Source of the DNA: Flavobacteriaceae bacterium
Lineage (GTDB): Bacteria > Bacteroidota > Bacteroidia > Flavobacteriales > Flavobacteriaceae
Length of the DNA: 32,000 nucleotides
Assembly (NCBI GenBank): GCA_965224465.1
Contig: OZ245049.1
Span: forward strand, 4,890,001-4,922,000
Direction of reading: 5' to 3'
This document shows positions 79 to 30,661 of this stretch, piece by piece; the stretch's first letter is position 1, and each line of letters opens with the position of its first letter. A program made the position numbers and the translations under genes. Below the pieces are notes generated by a model. The model did not search any database. It saw nothing but the letters and a program-made list of their open reading frames with translations, and was not told the origin of the DNA.

Positions 79-773
79 GCACCTATGGTGCTACAAACAG
101 TTTGCTTCTACGGAGCATATTATAAGAGATAACTATGACCACATACCCCGAACAAATATTAGAAAACAACCTGCTTTCTCACTTACAAAAAAGGGCTTAC
201 AAATGTGTTGCCATAAAAGATGAAACACAAAGAAATTGCTCTTCTGGAGCAAATAAAAGTATACGTCCCAGAGGGACAAACTGTTCGTAGCAAATAAAAA
301 ATTAATAGAATATGAATCCCAGAGGGATGACCTGTTAAATTAACAAGCTGGTAAATACATATACGCAAATATACATTCAAATTGTTTTTACGGTAAAAGG
401 CAGGCAAAACCTAATGCCTAAACAAAACCGTGATGAATTGCACAAATATATTCTACCAATTAATTTCCAAGTGACGGTTTAGAAATGGAATTGTTTTTTG
501 TTTTAGCTAGGCGAAAAATGGATGGATAACCTTTGCACCTATGGTGCTACAAACAGTTTGCTCCTACGGAGCATATTATAAGAGATAACTATGACCACAT
601 AACCCGAATAAATATTAGAAAATAACCTGCTTTCTCATTTACAAAAAAGGGCTTACAAATGTGTTGTCATAAAAGATGAAACACAAACAGTTTGCTCCTA
701 CGGAGCATATTATAAGCGATAACTATGACCACATACCCCGAACAAATATTAGAAAACAACCTGCTTTCTTACT
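79..773 (+). repeat. Composite tandem repeat array, part 1 (terminal hairpin + C module, then unit 1 = A-B-C-A-C), cut on the right by the IS66 insertion
   Basis: Same module order and sequence as 3772-5170. Approximate modules: hairpin 79-94, C 95-180, A 181-230, B 231-550, C 551-636, A 637-686, C 687-773. This unit is more diverged than units 2-4. Confidence 0.9.
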
Positions 774-987
774 GTAAGCATACGGCGTCCTACATATTGC
801 ACATCTAAATGAATAGTTTTTGCTTTGTAATTCATAAAAGCAACCTATAACATGTTCAATTTATCAAGTTCCCAAAAGTTTTATTTGTACAGTGAAAGTA
901 CAGATATGCGAAAAAGTTTTGACGGTCTGAGTGGTCTTATATTGACTGCTTTTGATCAAGTACCCACAAGTAGTTCGGTTTTTATTT

Positions 988-1997
988 TATGCTTGTCCGC
1001 TAGTTTCCCTAATATTTTTGTTGTATTTTCATAAAACATAAATAATCGATATGAGATTAATTGAATTTAGTGAGCACTACCCAGATGAAGCCAGTTGTAA
1101 AGCAGCATTTAAGTCCTATCGCGAAAAAGAAGGGGTTAAGTGTAAAAAGTGTGGAGGAACTACTCATTATTGGAAAAAGAAACGAGAACAGTGGGAATGT
1201 AAAAACTGTACTCACAGAACAACGTTGAAAAGCGGTACTGTTATGCAAAGCAGTAAATTACCTTTTAAGTATTGGTTTATAGCTATGCATTTAATAACAA
1301 GCACAAAAAAATCATTTTCGGCTAAAGAGATTCAACGTCAGATAGGTCATAAAAGATATGAGCCTATTTGGGCAATGGTTCATAAGTTAAGATGCGTTAT
1401 GGGGTTAAGAGACGATGAATATCAGCTTAGTGATGAGGTTGAATTGGATGATGGGTTTTTTGAAACCGTTTCAATAACAAGAGATAAAACAGCACCTTTA
1501 AAAAGGGGGCGAGGAAGTCAAAGACAATCAATAGTATTAGTAAGTATAGAGTCTAAACTAGAATCAGAACACTATAACAGCAAGAAACACAGGGTGAATA
1601 AGAGAGTGAAATTCCTAAAGATGAAAGTAATCAGTTCTTTAAAGAAAGAAGAGGTAGCTCAAACTGTAAATCAAATGGTTGAAGGAGGTAGCAAAATAAT
1701 TTCCGATGGATCAAATAGCTTTAATGACTTGACTAAGGATTTTGAACTAGTCTCTAATGTTGTGCCAAAGAAAAATATCAATTCTATTTTACCTTGGGTT
1801 CACAAAGCAATTAGTAACGCCAAAAGGCTATTACTGGATGTCCATCATAGAATAGATGATGATTTTCTTCAAAATTACTTGAACGAGTACTGCTACAAAT
1901 TCAATAGGAGAACATTTAATAACTTATTCGACAGGCTTATGATTGCAGCGGTATCATATAGATGGAATTATCTTGGGGAAGTTAACGGATAAGCATA
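988..1997 (+). mobile_element. IS1595-family (ISXO2-like) insertion sequence nested inside IS66 tnpB
   Basis: Terminal inverted repeats are TATGCTTGTCCG (988-) and TATGCTTATCCG (reverse complement of the 1997 end). An 8-bp direct duplication TTTTATTT lies at 980-987 and 1998-2005. There is a single transposase ORF. Ends are accurate to about 1-2 nt. Confidence 0.8.
1051..1992 (+). CDS. IS1595-family transposase (N-terminal zinc ribbon + ISXO2-like DDE domain)
   Basis: 313-aa ORF. It has a CKKCGG...CKNC zinc-ribbon motif and the HLITSTKKSFSAKEIQRQIG helix typical of ISXO2-like transposases. It fills the element bounded by the IRs/TSD. Confidence 0.88.
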   Translation: MRLIEFSEHYPDEASCKAAFKSYREKEGVKCKKCGGTTHYWKKKREQWECKNCTHRTTLKSGTVMQSSKLPFKYWFIAMHLITSTKKSFSAKEIQRQIGHKRYEPIWAMVHKLRCVMGLRDDEYQLSDEVELDDGFFETVSITRDKTAPLKRGRGSQRQSIVLVSIESKLESEHYNSKKHRVNKRVKFLKMKVISSLKKEEVAQTVNQMVEGGSKIISDGSNSFNDLTKDFELVSNVVPKKNINSILPWVHKAISNAKRLLLDVHHRIDDDFLQNYLNEYCYKFNRRTFNNLFDRLMIAAVSYRWNYLGEVNG

Positions 1998-2279
1998 TTT
2001 TATTTTCATAAATAAGCGGCGAAACAAAATGAAATTATTACATTGGGCAGGAGGAGGGTTTGTTCTTTATTACAAACGATTAGAAGAAGGTACATTTGAA
2101 CTTTCTGAATATGATATTGACACAAGTTTGATTATTTTAGACTACACTAGTACAGTTATGTTAATTGATGGAATTAGTATTTTAAACATCAAAAAAAGAA
2201 AGAGATTTTAACAGGTAACTCCTTGGTATTACTTGGTTTTAATAGTGATATTTCAGCTTAAAAAGCGTATCTTTCTACT

Positions 2280-3743
2280 ATGGATAGAACGCTTGAGGTG
2301 GAATATGTTTCAAAAGAAAAGTACGATAAAGTTTGCTCTGACAACGCAGATTTAAAGTTTCAATTAGATCAGTTACAACGAGCTCTTTTTGGAAGGAAAA
2401 CGGAACGTTTTATCCCTAGTATTGATGCGCAAATAGATTTATTTACAGGGACTTCTGCATGCGATCAAGTAGAAGAAAAAGAAAAAACGATTACATATAC
2501 TAGAAAGCTCAATAAGAAAGAAAAGAAGAAGCCAATTCGTATGATTTTACCTGCTCACTTACCTAGAGTAACGGAGATTATAGAACCCCTAGATAAAGAA
2601 CATGGCGCAAAGAAAATAGGAGAAGAGATTACAGAAATATTGGAGTACAATCCCGCAAATATCTATGTACGTCAGATTATAAGACCAAAATATGCGTATA
2701 AACAAGGGGTTTTAATTGCAGATTTACCCAGTCTCCCTATTCCAAGATCTAATGCAGGGGCAGGAATGTTAGCTTATGTTTGTGTTTCAAAATTTATAGA
2801 TCATCTACCTTTTTACAGACAAATTCAAATTCTAAAGCGCCAAAACTTAATAATTAGCGCTTCTACTATGGGAGATTGGTTTAACGGAACTTGTAAATTG
2901 ATACGTCCTCTTTTTGAAGCCTTAGAATCTCAAGTTTTAGAAAATACAGATTATTTACAAGCAGATGAATCACCTATAAAAGTACAGGATAGTCATAAAG
3001 TAAAGGCTTTACATCAAGGTTATATGTGGCTTTTCAGAAATCCACAAAACAAGCTTGTACTATTTAAGTATGATCAAGGACGTAGCCGTAAACTTCCAGA
3101 ACGCGTTTTATCAAACTTTACAGGAATCTTACAGACGGATGGCTACAAAGTTTACCAAATACTTCAAACAAAAGGAGAAATAACACTTTTGGGCTGTATG
3201 GCACATGCAAGAAGGTATTTTGAGAAAGCCCTAGATAACGATAAAGATAGAGCTGGTCACGTTTTAAAACAAATACAACTCCTATATCAGATTGAAGAAA
3301 AAGCTAGAGATAGGAAAGTAGAAGTGGGCATTCTAAAAAGGTATAGACAATTATATGCTGTACCTATTTTGGATGCATTAAAAATATGGTTAGAAGAAAA
3401 TAGTTATAAAGTATTACCTAAAAGCGCAATAGGTAAGGCAATAGCCTATACCATGAATATTTATGAAAATCTAAATAGATACGTCTTGGATGGCAAATTT
3501 GAGATAGACAATAACAATATAGAAAATGCGGTCAGGCCATTAGCTTTAGGTCGTAAAAATTACTTATTTGCAGGTTCTCACAATGCTGCAGAAAATATTG
3601 CAATGATGTATTCCTTTTTTGCTTCCTGCAAAGCTTATGGTATTAATCCTTATACTTGGCTTGAAAATGTATTGGACAGAATCCAAGAACATAAAGCAAA
3701 TAAACTATATGAACTTCTTCCTGGTAATTGGAAAAACGTATAA
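2280..3743 (+). CDS. tnpC: IS66-family transposase TnpC
   Basis: 487-aa ORF. N-terminal coiled-coil/leucine-zipper region (LKFQLDQLQRALFGRKTERF), DDE core (LQADESPIKV, LQTDGYKVY) and C-terminal NNIENAVRPLALGRKNYLFAGS motif are characteristic of IS66 TnpC. Confidence 0.93.
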   Translation: MDRTLEVEYVSKEKYDKVCSDNADLKFQLDQLQRALFGRKTERFIPSIDAQIDLFTGTSACDQVEEKEKTITYTRKLNKKEKKKPIRMILPAHLPRVTEIIEPLDKEHGAKKIGEEITEILEYNPANIYVRQIIRPKYAYKQGVLIADLPSLPIPRSNAGAGMLAYVCVSKFIDHLPFYRQIQILKRQNLIISASTMGDWFNGTCKLIRPLFEALESQVLENTDYLQADESPIKVQDSHKVKALHQGYMWLFRNPQNKLVLFKYDQGRSRKLPERVLSNFTGILQTDGYKVYQILQTKGEITLLGCMAHARRYFEKALDNDKDRAGHVLKQIQLLYQIEEKARDRKVEVGILKRYRQLYAVPILDALKIWLEENSYKVLPKSAIGKAIAYTMNIYENLNRYVLDGKFEIDNNNIENAVRPLALGRKNYLFAGSHNAAENIAMMYSFFASCKAYGINPYTWLENVLDRIQEHKANKLYELLPGNWKNV

Positions 3744-3771
3744 ACATAGATGTACTTGACCGCATGCTTAC

Positions 3772-5170
3772 TTCTTACTTACAAAAAATGGGGTACAAAA
3801 GTGTTGTCATAAAAGATGAAACACAAATAAATTGCTCTTCTGGAGCAAATAAAAGTAGAAGTCCCAGAGGGACAAACTGTTCGTAGCAAATAAAAAATTA
3901 ATAGAATAAGAATCCCAGAGGGATGACCTGTTAAATTAACAAGAAGGCAAATACATGTATGCAAATATACATTCAAATTGTTTTTACGTTAAAAGGCAGG
4001 CAAAACCTAATGCCTAAACAAAACCGTGATGAATTGCACAAATATATTCTACCAATTAATTTCCAAGTGACGGTTTAGAAATGGAATTGTTTTTTGTTTT
4101 AGCTAGGCGAAAAATGGATGGATAACCTTTGCACCTATGGTGCTACAAACAGTTTGCTCCTACGGAGCATATTATAAGCGATAACTATGACCACATAACT
4201 CGAATAAATATTAGAAAACAACCTGCTTTCTCACTTACAAAAAATGGGTTACAAAAGTATTGTCATAAAAGATGAAACACAAACAGTTTGCTCCTACGGA
4301 GCATATTATAAGCGATAACTATGACCACATAATTCGAACAAATATTAGAAAACAACCTACTTTCTTACTTACAAAAAAGGGGCTACAAAAGAGTTGTCAT
4401 AAAAGATGAAACACAAACAAATTGTTCTTCTGGAGCAAATAAAAGTAGAAGTCCCAGAGGGACAAACTGTTCGTAGCAAATAAAAAATTAATAGAATAAG
4501 AATCCCAGAGGGATGACCTGTTAAATTAACAAGAAGGCAAATACATGTATGCAAATATACATTCAAATTGTTTTTACGTTAAAAGGCAGGCAAAACCTAA
4601 TGCCTAAACAAAACCGTGATGAATTGCACAAATATATTCTACCAATTAATTTTCCAAGTGACGGTTTAGAAATGGTTTTTTTTAGCTAGGCGAAAAATGG
4701 ATGGATAACCTTTGCACCTATGGTGCTACAAACAGTTTGCTCCTACGGAGCATATTATAAGAGATAACTATGACCACATAACTCGAACAAATATTAGAAA
4801 ACAACCTGCTTTCTCACTTACAAAAAATGGGTTACAAAAGTATTGTCATAAAAGATGAAACACAAACAGTTTGCTCCTACGGAGCATATTATAAGCGATA
4901 ACTATGACCACATAACCCGAATAAATATTAGAAAACAACCTACTTTCTTACTTACAAAAAAGGGGCTACAAAAGAGTTGTCATAAAAGATGAAACACAAA
5001 CAAATTGTTCTTCTGGAGCAAATAAAAGTAGAAGTCCCAGAGGGACAAACTGTTCGTAGCAAATAAAAAATTAATAGAATAAGAATCCCAGAGGGATGAC
5101 CTGTTAAATTAACAAGAAGGCAAATACATGTATGCAAATATACATTCAAATTGTTTTTACGTTAAAAGGC
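3772..5170 (+). repeat. Composite tandem repeat array, part 2 (rest of unit 1 junction, units 2 and 3 complete, unit 4 truncated inside module B)
   Basis: Period is 590 bp (3779->4369), then 583 bp (4369->4952). The spurious 65-aa minus-strand ORFs at 4369-4566 and 4952-5149 are 100% identical. Unit 2 modules: A 3777-3827, B 3828-4146, C 4147-4232, A 4233-4280, C 4281-4366. The array ends abruptly at ...TTAAAAGGCA/TAGCGCCC (5170/5171). Confidence 0.93.
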
Positions 5171-5413: not shown

Positions 5414-5465
5414 TTTTATTCGTTGCAACCAATAGGCGAGAGATACTCTTCCGCTAAGCAGATAG
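5414..5465 (+). repeat. Right copy of the ~50-bp direct repeat bracketing the array (partner at 7-57)
   Basis: TTTTATTCGTTGCAACCAATAGGCGAGAGATACTCTTCCGCTAAGCAG aligns to 7-57. Confidence 0.8.
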
Positions 5466-5497
5466 ACTGCTTTGAGTTTCCCTGTCTTATACCAAAA

Positions 5498-5636
5498 ACA
5501 GCTCCAAATGACAGATGTAAATAGTTTGTTTTCCGTCGTTAAAAAACCGAAAGATAGCTAAGGCTATCCTTCAGTTTACCGTCTATAAAAAAAACAAAAA
5601 ATAATTCCATTTCTAAACCTTCACTTGGAAATGTAT
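5498..5636 (-). repeat. Dispersed ~150-bp intergenic element, full-length copy in inverted orientation
   Basis: The reverse complement reads ATACATTTCCAAGTGAAGGTTTAGAAATGGAATTATTTTTTG...GGATAGCCTTAGCTATC...CTATTTACATCTGTCATTTGGAGCTGT. It is colinear with 11214-11363 and 26598-26747. Confidence 0.8.
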
Positions 5637-5840
5637 TAAGTATCATTATCGAATGCAGCGTAATTGCATTGGTTTTGCCTATGTATTTTTTTGTTTTAGT
5701 AATGTCACCCTTTGATAATACCAATTATAAGTATACAAATGTAGTCTGTTAAGTTTCTCTCGTTATGCTATAATTAAAAGATGTTATAAGAATGTATAAT
5801 TGTATAAATACCGTACCTTTCACTATTAAATATTAAGTTT

Positions 5841-8096: not shown

Positions 8097-11000
8097 ATGA
8101 AATATAAAATACTATTATTAGTTCTGTTTCTTTTTGTCTTTTCTTTAACAAGTTTTTCTCAAATTAAAGACCCATTAATTACCAGCGATGCTGTAGCACA
8201 GCAAAAATGGGTTGATAATTTAATGAGCCACATGTCCGTTGATCAAAAGATAGGACAATTATTTATGGTGGCAGCTTATTCGAATAAAGGTAAAAAGCAT
8301 ACGGATTATATTCATGGTTTGATTCGTGATTTCCAAATTGGAGGACTTATCTTTATGCAAGGAACTCCTTTAAAACAAGCCCGGTTAAATAACAGTTACC
8401 AAAAGCAATCTAAAATACCTTTGTTGATTGGTTTTGATGGTGAATGGGGCTTAGATATGCGTTTAAAAAATACATATAAATACCCTTGGAATATGACTTT
8501 GGGAGCCATCAGGAATGATTCTTTGATAGAACAATTTGGCAAACAACTAGGAAAGCATTGTAAAAGATTAGGAATTCATATAAATTTTGCTCCAGTAGTA
8601 GATGTGAATACAAATCCAAACAATCCAATTATTGGTAATAGATCTTTTGGAGAAAACAAATTAAATGTTGCTTCAAAAGCCATCGCTTTTACAAAGGGAA
8701 TGCAAAGTCAAGGTGTACTTGCAAATGCTAAACATTTCCCTGGTCATGGCGATACAGCAACAGACTCTCATAAAACGCTTCCGTTTGTTTCCTTTTCAAA
8801 AGAAAGGATAGAAGCGGTAGAATTATATCCATATAAGGAATTATTTAAAAACGGACTCACCAGTATTATGGCGGCTCATTTAAGTATTCCTAGTTTAGAG
8901 CCTAATCCAGGACTGCCATCTTCGTTATCATACAATATTATTACGACGATTTTACAAGAGGATTTAGGATTTAAAGGATTGATAATTACGGATGCTTTAA
9001 ATATGAAAGGGACCTCAGATTTTGCGGAACCTGGCGCTATTGATTTGGCAGCATTACTCGCTGGTAATGATGTGTTGTTATTTCCAGAGAATGTGTCAAT
9101 TGCTTTAAATAAGATAAAATCGGCATTAAAAGAAGAAGTATTGACAGAGGAACGTTTGGATATTTCTGTTCGAAAAATATTAAAAGCCAAGTATTGGGCA
9201 GGTTTGTATAAAAAGAAATATGTTGAGTTGACCAATTTAAACAAAGATTTAAATACGATTACAGATAAACTGTTGCACGAAAAATTACTTGAAAATGCGG
9301 TGAGTTTGATTAAAAATTCTAGCAATGTATTTCCAATTCAAAATTTGGATAAGAAAAAAATTGCCTATGTGAAATTTGGGGATGCTCAGAATAAGGATTA
9401 CCTAAGAATGTTGCGGAAATACACGAATATCACCGTTATTTCTGGTAAAACTATAGATATTATTTTAGAAAAACTCAAAGGATTTAACGTAGTAATTATG
9501 GGCTATCATAAATCCAATAAAAACCCGTGGAAATCTTTTAAATTTAAGCATAAAGAATTGTTTTGGTTGCAAGAAATAGCGAGAGAAAACGATGTTATTT
9601 TAGATGTTTTTGCAAGCCCGTATAGTTTGTTAGATATTAAAACATTTGAGAATATTGATGGGTTACTAGTGTCTTATCAAAACAGTAAAATTTCTCAGGA
9701 GGTTTCTGCACAAATGATTTTTGGAGCAATTCCAGCAAAAGGAAAGTTGCCAGTTTCTATTCGAAACGAATTTTCTGAAGGGCATGGTCTTATGAGTTCT
9801 TCTTTAAAACGATTGGGATACGGCATCCCTGAAGAAGTAGGAATGGACAGTAATATTTTAAATAAAATTGATGCCATTGGTAGAGAAGTTGTAGCAAAAA
9901 AAATGGCTCCAGGTATGCAGGTATTGGTTGCTAGAAAAGGAAAAGTTATTTTCCATAGGACTTATGGCTACCATACGGATAAAAAAGTTCGAAGAGTCAG
10001 AAAAAATGACGTGTACGATTTGGCTTCTTTAACAAAAATATTGGGTGGATTACCAATGATAATGAGAAGTGAAGAATTAGGTAAATTTGATTTAGATAAT
10101 ACATTAGGTGATATTATGCCTATCCTGAGAGGTTCTAATAAAGATACAGTTACCATCCGAGAAGCATTGTCTCATAATGGAAAATTAAAACCATGGATTC
10201 CTTTTTATCTAAAAACGATAGATAGCGTTACCAAATTGCCTTCTTTAAAATATTATAGGTCTAAAAGATCTTATAAATTCCCTATAAAAATAGCGAAAAA
10301 TTTATATTTACGTAAGGATTATATTGATACTATTTTTCAACGAATTGTAGATGTGCCTCAACGTCGTAAAAGCGGGTATAAATATAGTGGTTTGCCCTTT
10401 TATTTGTTTAAAAAATATGTAGAGGATACATATAAGGAGAAAATGGATGTTTTGAATGATCGTCTTTTTTATAAGCCTTTAGGAGCCAATTCTTTGATGT
10501 ATAATCCCCTTAATAAAATATCAAAATATACGATTGTACCTACAGAAGATGATGATTATTATAGACATCAATTGCTACAAGGCTATGTACATGATATGGG
10601 GGCTGCTATGTTAAATGGGGTAAGTGGTAATGCTGGACTGTTTGGGAATGCAAATGATATTGCTAAGATGATGCAAATGTACCTTCAAAAAGGGTTTTAT
10701 GGCGGTAAACGCTATTTTAAAACAAGTACGATAAATACCTTTACCAAACGTCACTATGAAAAAGATAGTATTAGAAGAGGTTTAGGATTTGATAAACCTC
10801 AAATGGATCCTGATGTTTCTGCGACTTGTGGTTGTGTATCTGATCAGAGTTTTGGGCATAGTGGTTTTACAGGTACGTATGCTTGGGCAGATCCTGTATC
10901 CGAAATTGTATATGTGTTTTTGTCGAATAGAGTGTATCCAAAAATGAGTAATTATGGATTGGTGAAAGAAGGAATCCGAACAAGAGTGCAACAAATTATT

Positions 11001-11196: not shown

Positions 11197-11213
11197 GACG
11201 AGTAGCAATATTC

Positions 11214-11363
11214 AAATACTTTTCCAAGTGATGGTTTAGAAATGGACTTGTTTTTTGTTTTAGCTAGGCGAAAAATGGTTGGATAGCCATTGCTATCGTT
11301 CTGTTTTTTAACAAGGTTAGAACGTAAAATAAACTATTAATATCGGTTGTTTTGGATTGTAAT
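11214..11363 (+). repeat. Dispersed ~150-bp intergenic element, full-length copy
   Basis: AAATACTTTTCCAAGTGATGGTTTAGAAATGGACTTGTTTTTTGTTTTAGCTAGGCGAAAAATGG..GGATAGCCATTGCTATCGTTCTGTTTTTT...CTATTAATATCGGTTGTTTTGGATTGTAAT. It contains the hairpin GATAGC-CATT-GCTATC followed by a T-tract. It is colinear with 26598-26747. Confidence 0.85.
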
Positions 11364-26458: not shown

Positions 26459-26597
26459 AGCAAATGTGTATGTACTTTAAATATAATGCACATATTATTT
26501 TGCAAAGGTATAAAAAAAAAAGGAAATGATGTTTAGAATTGCTTCATCGGGATTCGTTTTTTTCTTTATTCTCTTAAAATCTAATGGTACTATACTA

Positions 26598-26747
26598 AAT
26601 ACATTTTCAAGTGCTCGGTTTAGAAATGGAATTATTTTTTGTTTTAGCTAGGCGATAAATCTAAGGATAGCCTTAGCTATCGTTCTGTTTTTTAACAACG
26701 TTGGAACGTAAAATCAGCTATTTATATCGGTTATTTGAGATTGTAAT
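26598..26747 (+). repeat. Dispersed ~150-bp intergenic element, full-length copy
   Basis: AAATACATTTTCAAGTGCTCGGTTTAGAAATGGAATTATTTTTTGTTTTAGCTAGGCGATAAAT..GGATAGCCTTAGCTATCGTTCTGTTTTTT...CTATTTATATCGGTTATTTGAGATTGTAAT. Same hairpin stem (GATAGC/GCTATC) with a different loop compared with 11214-11363. Confidence 0.85.
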
Positions 26748-26809
26748 TGGTGTAAAATAAGACATGTCTTTTGGATGATGCGATTCCTGTTTTTTAAAAC
26801 GTATCGGTT

Positions 26810-28510: not shown

Positions 28511-30661
28511 TTAAATGCCAGTTGGTGTAGCGCATACATCAAAACTCCAACCGCCTGAAATGCTATTGTTTGTTTCTGTCTTACAATTTGTATTCCCAAA
28601 AGAATACATTTCAAAAGAATAAGTTCCTATAGGAAGTTTATATTTTCTACTAGCACTGCAGGTGTCTGCAATGAATAGTGTTGGAGAAAATTTACCGTTT
28701 AGATGTGAAGGTAAATCGTTTATAGACGTCATTTGGTTTATTAGAGTGGTGCTTCCCGTAATATAGACTAATACACCTCTAAAATTATTGACTTTATCAA
28801 GTTTTTCAATGGTATAGGTAAAAATATAATCAAGAGATACAATACTTTCTTCTTCTAATGTTAGGGTGAGTTTAGAGACGAGTTCGTTATTATTTAACTG
28901 AGACCATGCCTGAGTACCGGAACTTTCAGATGTTAAGAGTTGTAATGTTTTTTCTTTTCTGTAAATTCCGTTGTCCGTTCCTATTACGATACTATTATTT
29001 GCATCATTACTTATTAGAGGACGCCAAGCTGTTCCAGTACCTGTAGAAGAAAGAATATCATTTGTGGCACCTGGGCTGGTACTACTGTCTATATAGCTTC
29101 CAGATACGGAAAGGTCTCCGGTGACTTGCGTATTGTTTTGTAATTGAATACCTGTTGCTCCAGCTATTTGGATATTGCCTGCTGTGGATCTTAGTTGAAT
29201 CAAGTTTTCACCAAAGGTCCTAAAATTTTTAAAATTATTAATTAAGGTCGTACCTATATTAGTTATTGTTGAAGAACTATTTGTAATGGTTGAACTACTA
29301 TTGGTCGTGATTGATGCACTGTTCGTGATAGTTGTACCACTGTTAGTTATGGTTGTCCCAGTATTGACTATAGTTGCAGCAGTACTTGTTATCGTTGGAG
29401 CTTTATTGGATATGTTAGTTTCAGCTTCATTTTCTATTTTTGTTACTTTAAATAGAAGTCGTTTTATCCCTCTGAAATATAAATTATTTTTATTTCCATA
29501 AAGAGTTCTGTGGGATGTAAGCGTCCCATTGGATATAAATATATTGGATGATGAATTATTAATCCATTTTGTACCAACATTTGTTGAACTTAATATTTGC
29601 CCTGCGATTCCTCTATCTCCTTGACTATCTCTCAGTATTTTTTTTACCCAAAGGTTTTCTTCAAAAGTACTGTTGTCATAAAAAAGAATACCAGATGAAC
29701 CCCACATTTGTGTATAACCAGCAGATGTGTTTATTTGTGTATTACCTGTAGCAGTAAGTAACAGGCTAGAGGAATCAATTGAATAGTTATTAATGGCACT
29801 AAACGATAGGTCGTTATTTTGTCCTTTTAGGCTTCTATTTGAAGTTAAAAGGCCACTGGTATTGTAAATGTTTTTTGAAGAGTTTTGTGTAACCCAATCA
29901 GTACCCGTTGCTGTAGAACTTAATATCTGTCCAGAAATTCCTGCATCACCGTCTTTATCTTTAAAGGCGTTGTTTACTTGTAGGTCTCCTGCAATATGTA
30001 GTTTTGCTTGTGGGTCGGTTGTATTTATTCCTATATTTCCGCCACTTTTTAAAAACAATCGAGAATTAAAAACACCAGATTCTTCAAAGTTTAGTCCGTT
30101 GGGGAGTAGGTTCCAATCCCATTTTGCGACTCCTGAAGCGTCCTCAAATGCTAATACTTCGTTTCCGTTTGCTCTTAGTACCAAAGGATGATCTTTATAG
30201 GTTGTTGCTTGGTTTATGAGTACCTGGCCTTTATTATTTACCAGTCGTAATTTTTCTACGCTATTTGATTTTAAAATAAGGTCTTGAGCATTTGTAGTCC
30301 CAATATAATTAGCATTTGTCGTAGGCGTATTTCCTGTTAATTTCCATGCTTTATTATTTGAAATATCTACGTATTCTTTGGTGACAGCATCTTTAGGATT
30401 TGTAGGGGTACCTAGGTTTGTTATTTTTAGAGCATTCGCATCATTTGCCTCTGCTAAAATTTCTTTTAAATTCTTATTTATAGGTTGAAAAGTACCATCA
30501 GTGAGTCCAATATAAATAATATTGGTAAACTTGTGTTTGTAGAGGTCTCCTTCTCCTGCATCTTTTGCAGCTATGTTGATGTTTGTTATTTCTTTTAAAT
30601 TCTGTGCAGTTGTATTTGTAATAGTAAAGAATAAAAGAATAAGGGGTATAACGTATTTCAT
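28511..30661 (-). CDS. Secreted tail-fibre-like protein, 716 aa, with internal repeats
   Basis: Signal peptide MKYVIPLILLFFTITNTTAQ. Motifs DAVTKEYVD, WKLTGNTPT..YIGTTNAQDLILKSN and GGNIGINTTDPQAKLHIAG. Three copies of G-x-x-G/N-Q/D-ILSST-x-x-GT-x-W. Eight TITNSxx heptads. Unique Cys-containing C-terminal domain. Confidence 0.78.
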   Translation of the reverse strand: MKYVIPLILLFFTITNTTAQNLKEITNINIAAKDAGEGDLYKHKFTNIIYIGLTDGTFQPINKNLKEILAEANDANALKITNLGTPTNPKDAVTKEYVDISNNKAWKLTGNTPTTNANYIGTTNAQDLILKSNSVEKLRLVNNKGQVLINQATTYKDHPLVLRANGNEVLAFEDASGVAKWDWNLLPNGLNFEESGVFNSRLFLKSGGNIGINTTDPQAKLHIAGDLQVNNAFKDKDGDAGISGQILSSTATGTDWVTQNSSKNIYNTSGLLTSNRSLKGQNNDLSFSAINNYSIDSSSLLLTATGNTQINTSAGYTQMWGSSGILFYDNSTFEENLWVKKILRDSQGDRGIAGQILSSTNVGTKWINNSSSNIFISNGTLTSHRTLYGNKNNLYFRGIKRLLFKVTKIENEAETNISNKAPTITSTAATIVNTGTTITNSGTTITNSASITTNSSSTITNSSSTITNIGTTLINNFKNFRTFGENLIQLRSTAGNIQIAGATGIQLQNNTQVTGDLSVSGSYIDSSTSPGATNDILSSTGTGTAWRPLISNDANNSIVIGTDNGIYRKEKTLQLLTSESSGTQAWSQLNNNELVSKLTLTLEEESIVSLDYIFTYTIEKLDKVNNFRGVLVYITGSTTLINQMTSINDLPSHLNGKFSPTLFIADTCSASRKYKLPIGTYSFEMYSFGNTNCKTETNNSISGGWSFDVCATPTGI
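29246..29401 (-). repeat. In-frame 21-bp imperfect tandem repeat (eight heptads of consensus T-I-T-N-S-x-x, the last degenerate) inside the 716-aa gene
   Basis: The translation reads TITSTAA TIVNTGT TITNSGT TITNSAS ITTNSSS TITNSSS TITNIGT TLINNFK. The nucleotide copies are diverged. Confidence 0.8.

Follow-up and report, generated by a model that had tools for sequence, protein, structure and literature searches.

A hairpin-dense tandem array in a Flavobacteriaceae genome as the probable relic of a REPtron next to a type I restriction gene

Anatomy of the array and its hairpin units

The DNA considered here is a stretch of 32,000 nt from a Flavobacteriaceae bacterium (assembly GCA_965224465.1, contig OZ245049.1, positions 4,890,001 to 4,922,000), referred to below as the window. 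At positions 79-5170 of the window lies a composite tandem array rich in short hairpins. An insertion sequence (IS) of the IS66 family, which carries a nested IS1595-family element, splits the array; without the IS66 element (774-3771) and one of the two copies of the 8-bp duplication at its target site (TTCTTACT), the array measures 2,086 bp. With a probability of about 0.75, this array is a decayed and tandemly amplified relic of a REPtron that lay immediately 5' of a type I restriction gene. The term REPtron denotes a gene for a Y1/HUH single-strand-DNA transposase situated between inverted pairs of its cognate short palindromic repeats (repetitive extragenic palindromes, REPs).

The array is hierarchical, with 134-bp units composed of the modules C and A lying within super-units of 583-590 bp that also contain a module B. 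The 134-bp period is recovered by Tandem Repeats Finder at 93-94% matches, and a repeat search of the window gives spacings of 590 and 583 bp for the super-units. In a self-BLAST comparison, super-units 3 and 4 are 98.9% identical, and unit 1 shares about 92.7% identity with them. The original prediction, made from the letters of the sequence, had described an array of about 2.1 kb with these two periods, with near-identical units 3 and 4 and a diverged unit 1, and all of this is borne out. Seven C-A units can be counted on the plus strand, at 93-226, 549-682, 683-3822 (split by the IS66 element into array parts 683-773 and 3780-3822), 4145-4278, 4279-4412, 4728-4861, and 4862-4995. Each contains, in this order, an inverted outer REP, the leader of an hsdR gene and hsdR codons 1-30. 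Four B modules are present on the same strand. The first (227-548) consists of a degenerate C-like hairpin (B1), an outer REP, an inner REP, a remnant of a Y1 gene, a piece of a dispersed element, and a terminal hairpin. The second lies at 3823-4144, the third (4413-4727) has 315 bp with a deletion of 7-8 nt within the dispersed-element piece, and the fourth (4996-5170) is cut off within the Y1 remnant, after the codons ..TLKG.

All hairpins of the original prediction were found, and at periodic positions. The C hairpin, TGCT[CT]CTACGGAGCA, occurs seven times (103, 559, 693, 4155, 4289, 4738, and 4872). Four copies each exist of the B1 hairpin (236, 3832, 4422, and 5005), the B2 hairpin GTCCCAGAGGGAC (265, 3861, 4451, and 5034), the B3 hairpin ATCCCAGAGGGAT (316, 3912, 4502, and 5085), and the terminal B hairpin GCACC-TAT-GGTGC (GCACCTATGGTGC; 79, 535, 4131, and 4714). 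The motif AGGCA-N12-TGCCT is present three times (398, 3994, and 4584). Terminator-like hairpins in the array number 16, above the chance level of 3.2 +/- 1.7 in shuffled sequence.

According to their position and orientation, the hairpins can be assigned roles. B2 is an outer repeat, B3 an inner repeat, C (CTACAAACAGTT TGCTCCtacGGAGCA) an inverted outer repeat, and B1 a diverged copy of C. B2 and B3 are in forward orientation and the terminal B hairpin and C are inverted, so that inverted palindromes stand on either side of the Y1 remnant. A covariance model, R1, was built from 13 distinct hairpin-plus-tail units, and its scan of the window returned 15 hits at E<0.05, all within 87-5109. The forward outer REPs (GTCCCagaGGGAC with the tail AAACTGTTCGTAG) are located on the plus strand at 261-294 (41.4 bits) and at 3857-3890, 4447-4480, and 5030-5063 (43.3 bits each). 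The inner REPs, which adjoin the start of the Y1 remnant (ATCCCagaGGGAT with the tail GACCTGTTAAAT), are found on the plus strand at 312-340 (16.8 bits), 3908-3936, 4498-4526, and 5081-5109; the last three were assigned by the covariance model, and the copy at 4498-4526 also by alignment with an intact locus. The inverted outer REPs lie on the minus strand and read CTACAAACAGTT and then TGCTTCtacGGAGCA on the plus strand. Those at 543-576, 4139-4172, and 4722-4755 score 47.1 bits and the one at 87-120, with one stem mismatch, 39.1 bits. The remaining three (678-710, 4274-4306, and 4857-4889; 30.1 bits each) are variants at the A-to-C junction, where ACAC stands in place of CTAC. In single-strand folds, the forward outer REP of B2 and the inverted outer REP of C can pair through both their tails and their hairpins.

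Eleven array units reach 30-47 bits with R1; DNA of other Flavobacteriaceae and controls, 1.46 Mb in all, yields no score above 24 bits. Genome, metagenome and viral collections contained no exact match to the pattern of the C hairpin (TTTGCTYCTACGGAGCATATTAT). Two weak R1 matches (23-24 bits) were seen in Flavobacterium psychroterrae (locus L021, 2042-2076 on the plus strand and 8657-8691 on the minus strand), away from any Y1 gene in that locus. In each, ..TTGTAG and another hairpin come after a hairpin of higher AT content; the two matches may be dispersed copies of a related repeat.

Remnants of two genes and their intact counterparts

The plus-strand translation of the first B module reads INKLVNTYTQIYIQIVFTVKGRQNLMPKQNRDELHKYI, and in a database of 5.8e9 sequences it matches the N-termini of PF01797 (Y1_Tnp) proteins with a best E value of 9e-11. 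All 21 matching proteins align from their own residue 1 onward, and some are named 'REP element-mobilizing transposase RayT'. Each B module therefore contains a 5' remnant of a Y1/HUH transposase gene, 35 codons in length (LVNTYTQIYIQIVFTVKGRQNLMPKQNRDELHKYI) and without its start codon. The remnants are located on the plus strand at 348-452, 3944-4048, 4534-4638, and, in truncated form, 5117-5170; the first and third are colinear with the intact Y1 gene of the comparison locus L111 described below. The gene breaks off at codon 35, where a piece of about 74 nt from an unrelated dispersed palindromic element (464-537, 4060-4133, and 4651-4716, plus strand) is fused to it. The motif AGGCA-N12-TGCCT, which had been claimed as a stem-loop, sits inside the Y1 remnant at the codons KGRQNLMPK; it is thus conserved coding sequence and not a repeat hairpin.

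The C-A units contain a remnant of a second gene. A word-indexed protein search with their frame MTTYPEQILENNLLSHLQKRAYKCVAIKDE gave no candidates, and an exhaustive HMMER search of 1.8 billion representatives with the same frame returned N-terminal fragments such as MTTQPEQILENNLVAQLQKLGYKSVVIKDENDLLANLK.QLE.HNK. Four proteins (P0143, P0144, P0146, and P0147) match the A/C frame at E values from 5e-6 to 5e-4 among the 1.8e9 proteins. P0146 in turn matches residues 31-87 of the solved EcoR124I HsdR (E 7.5e-6), and its best Pfam match is HSDR_N, under the family cut-off; the hsdR homology of the array fragment thus rests on relatives that match EcoR124I HsdR. Since the frame matches the N-termini of hsdR products, each C-A unit consists of an inverted REP, a leader of about 18 nt and the first 30 codons of hsdR. 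These remnants are placed on the plus strand at 135-224, 591-680, 725-3820 (split by the IS66 element into 725-773 and 3780-3820), 4187-4276, 4321-4410, 4770-4859, and 4904-4993. The array holds no full-length hsdR gene, only codons 1-30 in seven copies. An open reading frame (ORF) in another locus, L110 (GCA_024279935.1), shares about 80% DNA identity with the A module over 90 nt and comes after a Fic gene. In that locus, a Fic-domain gene is followed by a decayed hsdR (8460-10564) of which the first 55 codons are open; the pieces downstream, including DVTLLINGLPLVQIE, are frame-shifted, and the contig ends about 400 bp further.

Among the seven 134-bp copies, the ratios of synonymous to non-synonymous substitutions by frame are 5/13, 4/14, and 6/12, which indicates no coding bias. 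The original statement that the array has no credible coding capacity is accordingly right in that no intact gene exists and the substitutions carry no coding signal, and it overlooked that the modules are pseudogene fragments. The same data bear on the idea that the array is a type I toxin-antitoxin locus or a series of tandem small protein genes (45-aa ORFs on the plus strand with ATGA overlaps, 4272-4409 and 4855-4992). In every 134-bp unit an open frame of 45-52 aa does recur, with stop and start codons that overlap; however, 134 is not a multiple of 3, the peptides are neither hydrophobic nor toxin-like, and the sole frame with homologues is the hsdR N-terminus, cut at codon 30. Pfam and NCBIfam provide no match either, and with the absence of a coding signal this idea is hardly credible. 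Searches of Pfam, NCBIfam and PDB with array fragments of 30-46 aa all remained without a match because the fragments are too short.

The arrangement of these parts can be understood from an intact locus, L111, in a metagenome-assembled genome (MAG) of the Luteibaculaceae. There, an outer and then an inner REP precede a 153-aa Y1 gene, which is followed by the inverted inner and the inverted outer REP; after another 17 nt comes hsdR, whose start lies 88 nt downstream of the Y1 gene. The HsdR encoded there is intact, with 983 aa and the domains HSDR_N, ResIII, and EcoR124_C. The left half of L111 is colinear with B2, B3 and the Y1 remnant (mean column identity 86%); the right half can be aligned with the B end, C and A. 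The B module is the left half of a REPtron, comprising the outer hairpin with AAACTGTTCGTAG, the inner hairpin with GACCTGTTAAAT, and the first 35 Y1 codons. The terminal B hairpin and the C hairpin, which follows CTACAAACAGTT, are its right, inverted half, and the remainder of C together with A comprises the leader of an EcoR124-type hsdR and its first 30 codons. The identity between the order of parts in the array and that in a real Y1-REP-hsdR locus is the strongest single evidence for the REPtron origin. L111 also has the neighbourhood of the decayed array, which raises the question of whether a Y1-REP module travels with type I restriction cassettes.

The layout of outer repeat, inner repeat, gene, inverted inner repeat and inverted outer repeat was found in 8 of the 8 other Bacteroidota Y1 loci examined (L093, L094, L101, L102, L104, L107/L108, L111, and L112/L113). 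In L104, from Flavobacterium, the 5' side of the intact 153-aa gene reads [GCCTCggaGAGGC AACCTGTTTGTAG] for the outer and [GCTCCgtaGGAGC GACCTGTTATT] for the inner repeat, followed by the ATG. The 3' side after the stop codon, inverted relative to the 5' side, reads [AACAGGTC GCTCCtacGGAGC] and then [CTACAAACAGCAG GCCTCtccGAGGC]. To avoid selecting on hairpins, the tail motif alone was used as an anchor, and a perfect 5-bp hairpin with a 3-nt loop was scored 3 nt upstream of it. Such a hairpin precedes the tail in 23 of 30 cases at Y1 loci and in 7 of 8 in the window, where the eighth has one mismatch, compared to 0 of 5 in the background.

More than 7,990 proteins fall into the Y1 family at E<1e-20, usually with a length of 153 aa. 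The gene of this family in Flavobacterium (L104, L107, and L108; 2001-2462) lies between genes for a fadB-like 3-hydroxyacyl-CoA dehydrogenase and a thiolase, in a fatty-acid oxidation cluster. Occupation of the same chromosomal position in several Flavobacterium genomes suggests vertical inheritance and domestication of this gene. Two assemblies of F. branchiophilum differ upstream of the intact Y1 gene, with 3 versus 5 REP units of 48-49 bp, and arrays of this type are therefore dynamic.

The original prediction had counted a lack of homologues outside this strain among the findings that would favour a neutral satellite. Such a homologue exists: P0142, encoded on a 5.24-Mb NCBI contig, can be aligned gap-free with the entire 51 residues of the window ORF at 135-287, including the part encoded by B1 and B2, and the composite junction is thus not confined to the source strain of the array. 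P0143 is encoded in the same genome. Synteny anchored on the PPK2 gene was compared for 80 loci, among which one close relative (L001) was found and the array was absent from the others; tblastn of the Y1 fragment against the same 80 loci gave no match. BLAST of the 590-bp unit against plasmid and phage collections was also without a match, and no Y1 protein of this kind was found in viral contigs. The closest relative, MAG NORP129 (L001), has a PPK2 with 90% protein identity, and its contig ends 203 bp upstream of that gene. The upstream sequence of L001 shows no relation to the window beyond about 120 bp, as would be expected from a variable region or if the assembly broke at a repeat. In practical terms, arrays of this type break short-read assemblies, and the contig of the nearest relative stops 203 bp from the same PPK2 gene.

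The hairpins of the array might alternatively belong to a series of structured RNAs, small or antisense, encoded as a battery. In that case, each B module would possess a minus-strand promoter, the REP hairpins would act as terminators, and transcripts of about 120-190 nt would arise in antisense to the transposase remnant, similar to the antisense control of IS200. Matches to the promoter pattern TTG-N17-21-TAnnTTTG are present in the array on the minus strand only (470, 4066, 4657, 4282, and 4865), and these five are among 11 minus-strand matches to the consensus in the whole window. The array has 15 hairpins on the minus strand with a T-rich run behind them, compared to 3.2 expected for both strands together; two C-to-T substitutions in stems keep a G-T (G-U) pair on the plus strand only. 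However, three of the promoter-like matches (470, 4066, and 4657) sit at the junction of the dispersed element and the Y1 remnant, and a promoter match made by fusion with a foreign element is not conserved in the intact loci. The hairpins are completely explained as DNA recognition sites, the presumed target gene is dead, and no Rfam family matches. Therefore, a small-RNA battery is considered very improbable, and the promoter-like and terminator-like matches are weak and indirect indications of one.

Formation and later history of the array

On the reading of the array as a REPtron relic, its history would have proceeded in several stages. The Y1 and hsdR genes would both have been inactivated. 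The 134-bp segment composed of a REP and the hsdR 5' end would have been duplicated first and the 590-bp composite multiplied afterwards, most recently to form super-units 3 and 4. The two C-A positions of one super-unit differ by about 6%, and the same position differs by 1.5-2.2% between super-units 3 and 4, which indicates that the 134-bp duplication is older than the multiplication of the 590-bp composite. The IS66 element would have landed in the array later, and the IS1595 element then in the IS66 element. An 'unknown structured-RNA array' is thereby replaced by a history, in which a transposase-plus-hairpin module and a restriction gene decayed, were amplified and became a landing pad for two IS. 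A dedicated cellular function of the array is improbable.

Y1/HUH transposases of the IS200/IS605 and RAYT (REP-associated tyrosine transposase) groups bind single-stranded DNA hairpins and cleave at a short guide sequence such as GTAG, and REP clusters are often tandemly reiterated together with flanking DNA and attract IS insertions (PMC6006769, PMC3733652). By this mechanism, the hairpins of the array would be single-stranded-DNA structures recognised by the Y1 transposase, and the tail containing GTAG/CTAC would be a guide or cleavage determinant. Because the resident Y1 gene is dead, copy-number change at the present day most likely occurs by unequal exchange of the RecA type or by slippage between the long direct repeats.

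A different possibility is amplification driven by an active enzyme. An intact subclass 1.2 Y1 transposase encoded elsewhere would excise and reinsert hairpin-bounded single-stranded segments beside GTAG/CTAC, unit by unit, and would in this way capture the hsdR 5' fragment; such events would require an intact Y1 gene elsewhere in the genome. The TnpA-REP of E. coli, in work of Ton-Hoang et al. from 2012, reportedly cuts at CT dinucleotides beside REPs. The unit junctions of the array do lie at the REP tail, and at the A-to-C junction (..GATGAAAC/ACAAACAG) the likeness to the canonical CTACAAACAG starts within the tetranucleotide. Copy number is also variable in REP arrays beside intact genes. 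Nevertheless, no intact Y1 gene exists in the window, and repeats of 134 bp and 590 bp with 94-99% identity are ideal for RecA-dependent exchange, so that no enzyme-specific step is needed. A 590-bp unit that contains a dead gene and foreign DNA is also more typical of segmental duplication. Enzyme-driven amplification is for these reasons regarded as unlikely, if less so than a small-RNA battery.

Several observations weigh against the preferred reading, that of a REPtron relic. The 32-kb window has no intact Y1 gene, since the four remnant copies end at or before codon 35 and no other ORF belongs to PF01797; present enzymatic action on the array is therefore unsupported. R1 has no hit below E 0.1 elsewhere in the window, and the dispersed high copy number of classical REPs is thus not seen within these 32 kb. 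The GTAG is conserved but lies 9-10 nt off a stem of 5-6 bp, unlike canonical REPs. In favour of the reading, the stems vary across loci (GTCCC, GCTCC, GCCCC, GCCTC, ACCTC, and ACCCC), with 4 of 5 pairs changed on both sides; this count of covariation is, however, circular in part, as the ability to form a hairpin had served to select the sequences. Variation within the 134-bp unit is also uneven: 15 of 17 variable sites are at positions 54-119, in the hsdR fragment, and 2 are in the REP core and its surroundings (p=5e-4 for a post hoc partition, p=0.09 for the a priori partition into REP and hsdR). The higher conservation of the REP part could reflect constraint or gene conversion. Finally, the published survey lists no REPs for the Y1 subclass 1.2 (Y---Q--HH), the subclass of the remnant's relatives (Quentin, Siguier, Chandler and Fichant 2018, PMC6006769).

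The two insertion sequences are nested. The IS66-family element (774-3771, plus strand) has a tnpB gene split into 852-1034 and 2029-2211 and a tnpC gene at 2280-3743. Its terminal repeats read GTAAGCAT.., its insertion site is within an hsdR remnant, and the target duplication TTCTTACT is found at 766-773 and 3772-3779. The element had no match in the plasmid collection. Within tnpB lies the IS1595-family element (988-1997, plus strand), with a transposase gene at 1051-1992, inverted repeats of 28 nt, and an 8-bp duplication, TTTTATTT, at 980-987 and 1998-2005.

Other repeats are present in the window. The dispersed element, pieces of which are fused to the Y1 remnants, also exists as three solo copies at 5487-5643 (minus strand), 11213-11347 and 26592-26755 (both plus strand), each an imperfect palindrome of about 135-165 nt with the core CAAGTGNNGGTTTAGAAATGG. 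It is intergenic and folds into a long, imperfectly palindromic structure, in which GATAGCCTTAGCTATC forms the central hairpin and a T-run comes next. No Rfam family matches it, none of 80 other Flavobacteriaceae loci contains it, and the matches to its core pattern in metagenome and viral collections are due to chance. It could be a miniature inverted-repeat transposable element (MITE)-like element or a small-RNA or terminator module. A direct repeat of 48 nt, 90% identical between 7-54 and 5414-5461 and containing the palindrome GTTGCAAC, encloses the array together with unique DNA of about 240 bp. This repeat is not accounted for by an ORF or a known motif; it may be what is left of a segmental duplication, or a site of the att type. 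A minus-strand ORF of 716 aa (28511-30661) contains, at 29257-29360, a tandem repeat of 21 bp (4.7 copies with 69-82% matches) that presumably represents a 7-residue protein repeat.

Comparison with known systems

The array was compared with the known systems of repeated or structured DNA. CRISPR was rejected, as the 'spacers' are themselves repeated at 91-99% identity and no cas domains were found among the neighbouring ORFs. Integron attC sites and iterons or origins were also considered and rejected. The earlier exclusion of CRISPR and simple satellite DNA was correct, and so was the statement that no named RNA family is present: Rfam gave 0 hits at the gathering score and only noise below it, the best sub-threshold match in the window being a Tetrahymena snoRNA with 31 bits against a threshold of 70 bits. 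No tRNA or tmRNA was found in a scan of the window. Among the three candidates of the original prediction, nothing supports a type I toxin or antisense locus, and the small-RNA battery retains the indirect indications described above. An expanded MITE-like element is the closest of the three because the array derives from a transposase-associated element and is itself non-autonomous.

The exclusion of REPs and bacterial interspersed mosaic elements (BIMEs) was wrong. The hairpins are the cognate palindromes of a RAYT-like Y1 transposase, of whose gene every B module contains a remnant, and both orientations of them are present. As in the REPs, BIMEs and REPtrons associated with RAYT/TnpA-REP in E. 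coli, Pseudomonas, and Stenotrophomonas, short GC-rich palindromes have a conserved flank that includes GTAG/CTAC. REPtrons and the array have in common both orientations and inverted pairs that flank a PF01797 Y1 gene, and REP/BIME clusters and the array share tandem clustering with flanking DNA and insertion of IS into the clusters. There are also differences. The REP descriptor demands GT[AG]G 0-2 nt from the stem foot and a stem of >=7 bp (PMC6006769). The array departs from both formal requirements, with stems of 5-6 bp around a 3-nt loop and the GTAG 9-10 nt from the stem instead of 0-2 nt. Its protein is of class 1 (Y---Q--HH) and not a class 2 TnpA-REP (Y---NP), and its resident gene is reduced to 35 codons that are themselves part of the repeat unit. 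In organisation and working, the array resembles a REP/BIME cluster around a RAYT gene, and it is best filed neither as a member of a canonical REP family nor as a new class of element.

REPINs (Bertels and Rainey 2011) resemble the array in that forward and inverted outer REPs can pair in a single-strand fold. However, the spacer in the array is about 260 nt long and contains a gene remnant, whereas the REPIN spacer is short and non-coding, and no dispersed identical doublets were seen. With IS200/IS605 elements and their palindrome-associated (PATE) and MITE derivatives, the array has in common a Y1 HUH transposase, recognition of subterminal hairpins, and internally deleted non-autonomous forms. 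In contrast to IS200/IS605, in which the hairpins have the same orientation on one strand, the flanking hairpins here are inverted. Intact genes are single-copy at conserved positions, without tnpB, and the array grows in situ rather than dispersing. Instead of ends in the same orientation and multiple near-identical mobile copies, inverted flanks and conserved synteny with the fadB-like and thiolase genes were found.

A further known system is the TnpA-Y1 subclass 1.2 (PMC6006769). Relatives of the remnant have about 153 aa, belong to Bacteroidota, are low-copy, and show conserved synteny in Flavobacterium. Their full-length sequences contain the HuH motif DH[VT]H, WQ, and the Y-motif YILNQKEHH, the signature of subclass 1.2. 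The descriptor of the published survey, which requires a stem of >=7 bp and GTAG within 2 nt, would miss repeats with short stems and distant tails, and no later paper describing such repeats was found in the literature searched. It may be, tentatively, that subclass 1.2 has its own overlooked cognate repeats (a stem of 5-6 bp, a 3-nt loop, a 3-nt spacer, and the tail CTGTTTGTAG, in inverted pairs) and that the array records a trans-acting enzyme amplifying segments in place while capturing and destroying a restriction gene; this combined proposal is considerably more doubtful than the REPtron origin. What is new is a candidate cognate repeat, proposed from sequence comparison, for an orphan and very widespread Y1 subclass of Bacteroidota that was published as REP-less and without an assigned role. 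If the association with hairpins holds genome-wide, the orphan subclass would obtain a testable DNA substrate, and REP/RAYT biology would be extended to Bacteroidota. From the comparison loci, a highly conserved and very large Y1 family of Bacteroidota is regularly situated between inverted short hairpins with a GTAG tail; compared to the published subclass 1.2, in which no REPs are listed, all of the eight loci studied here have flanking inverted hairpin pairs.

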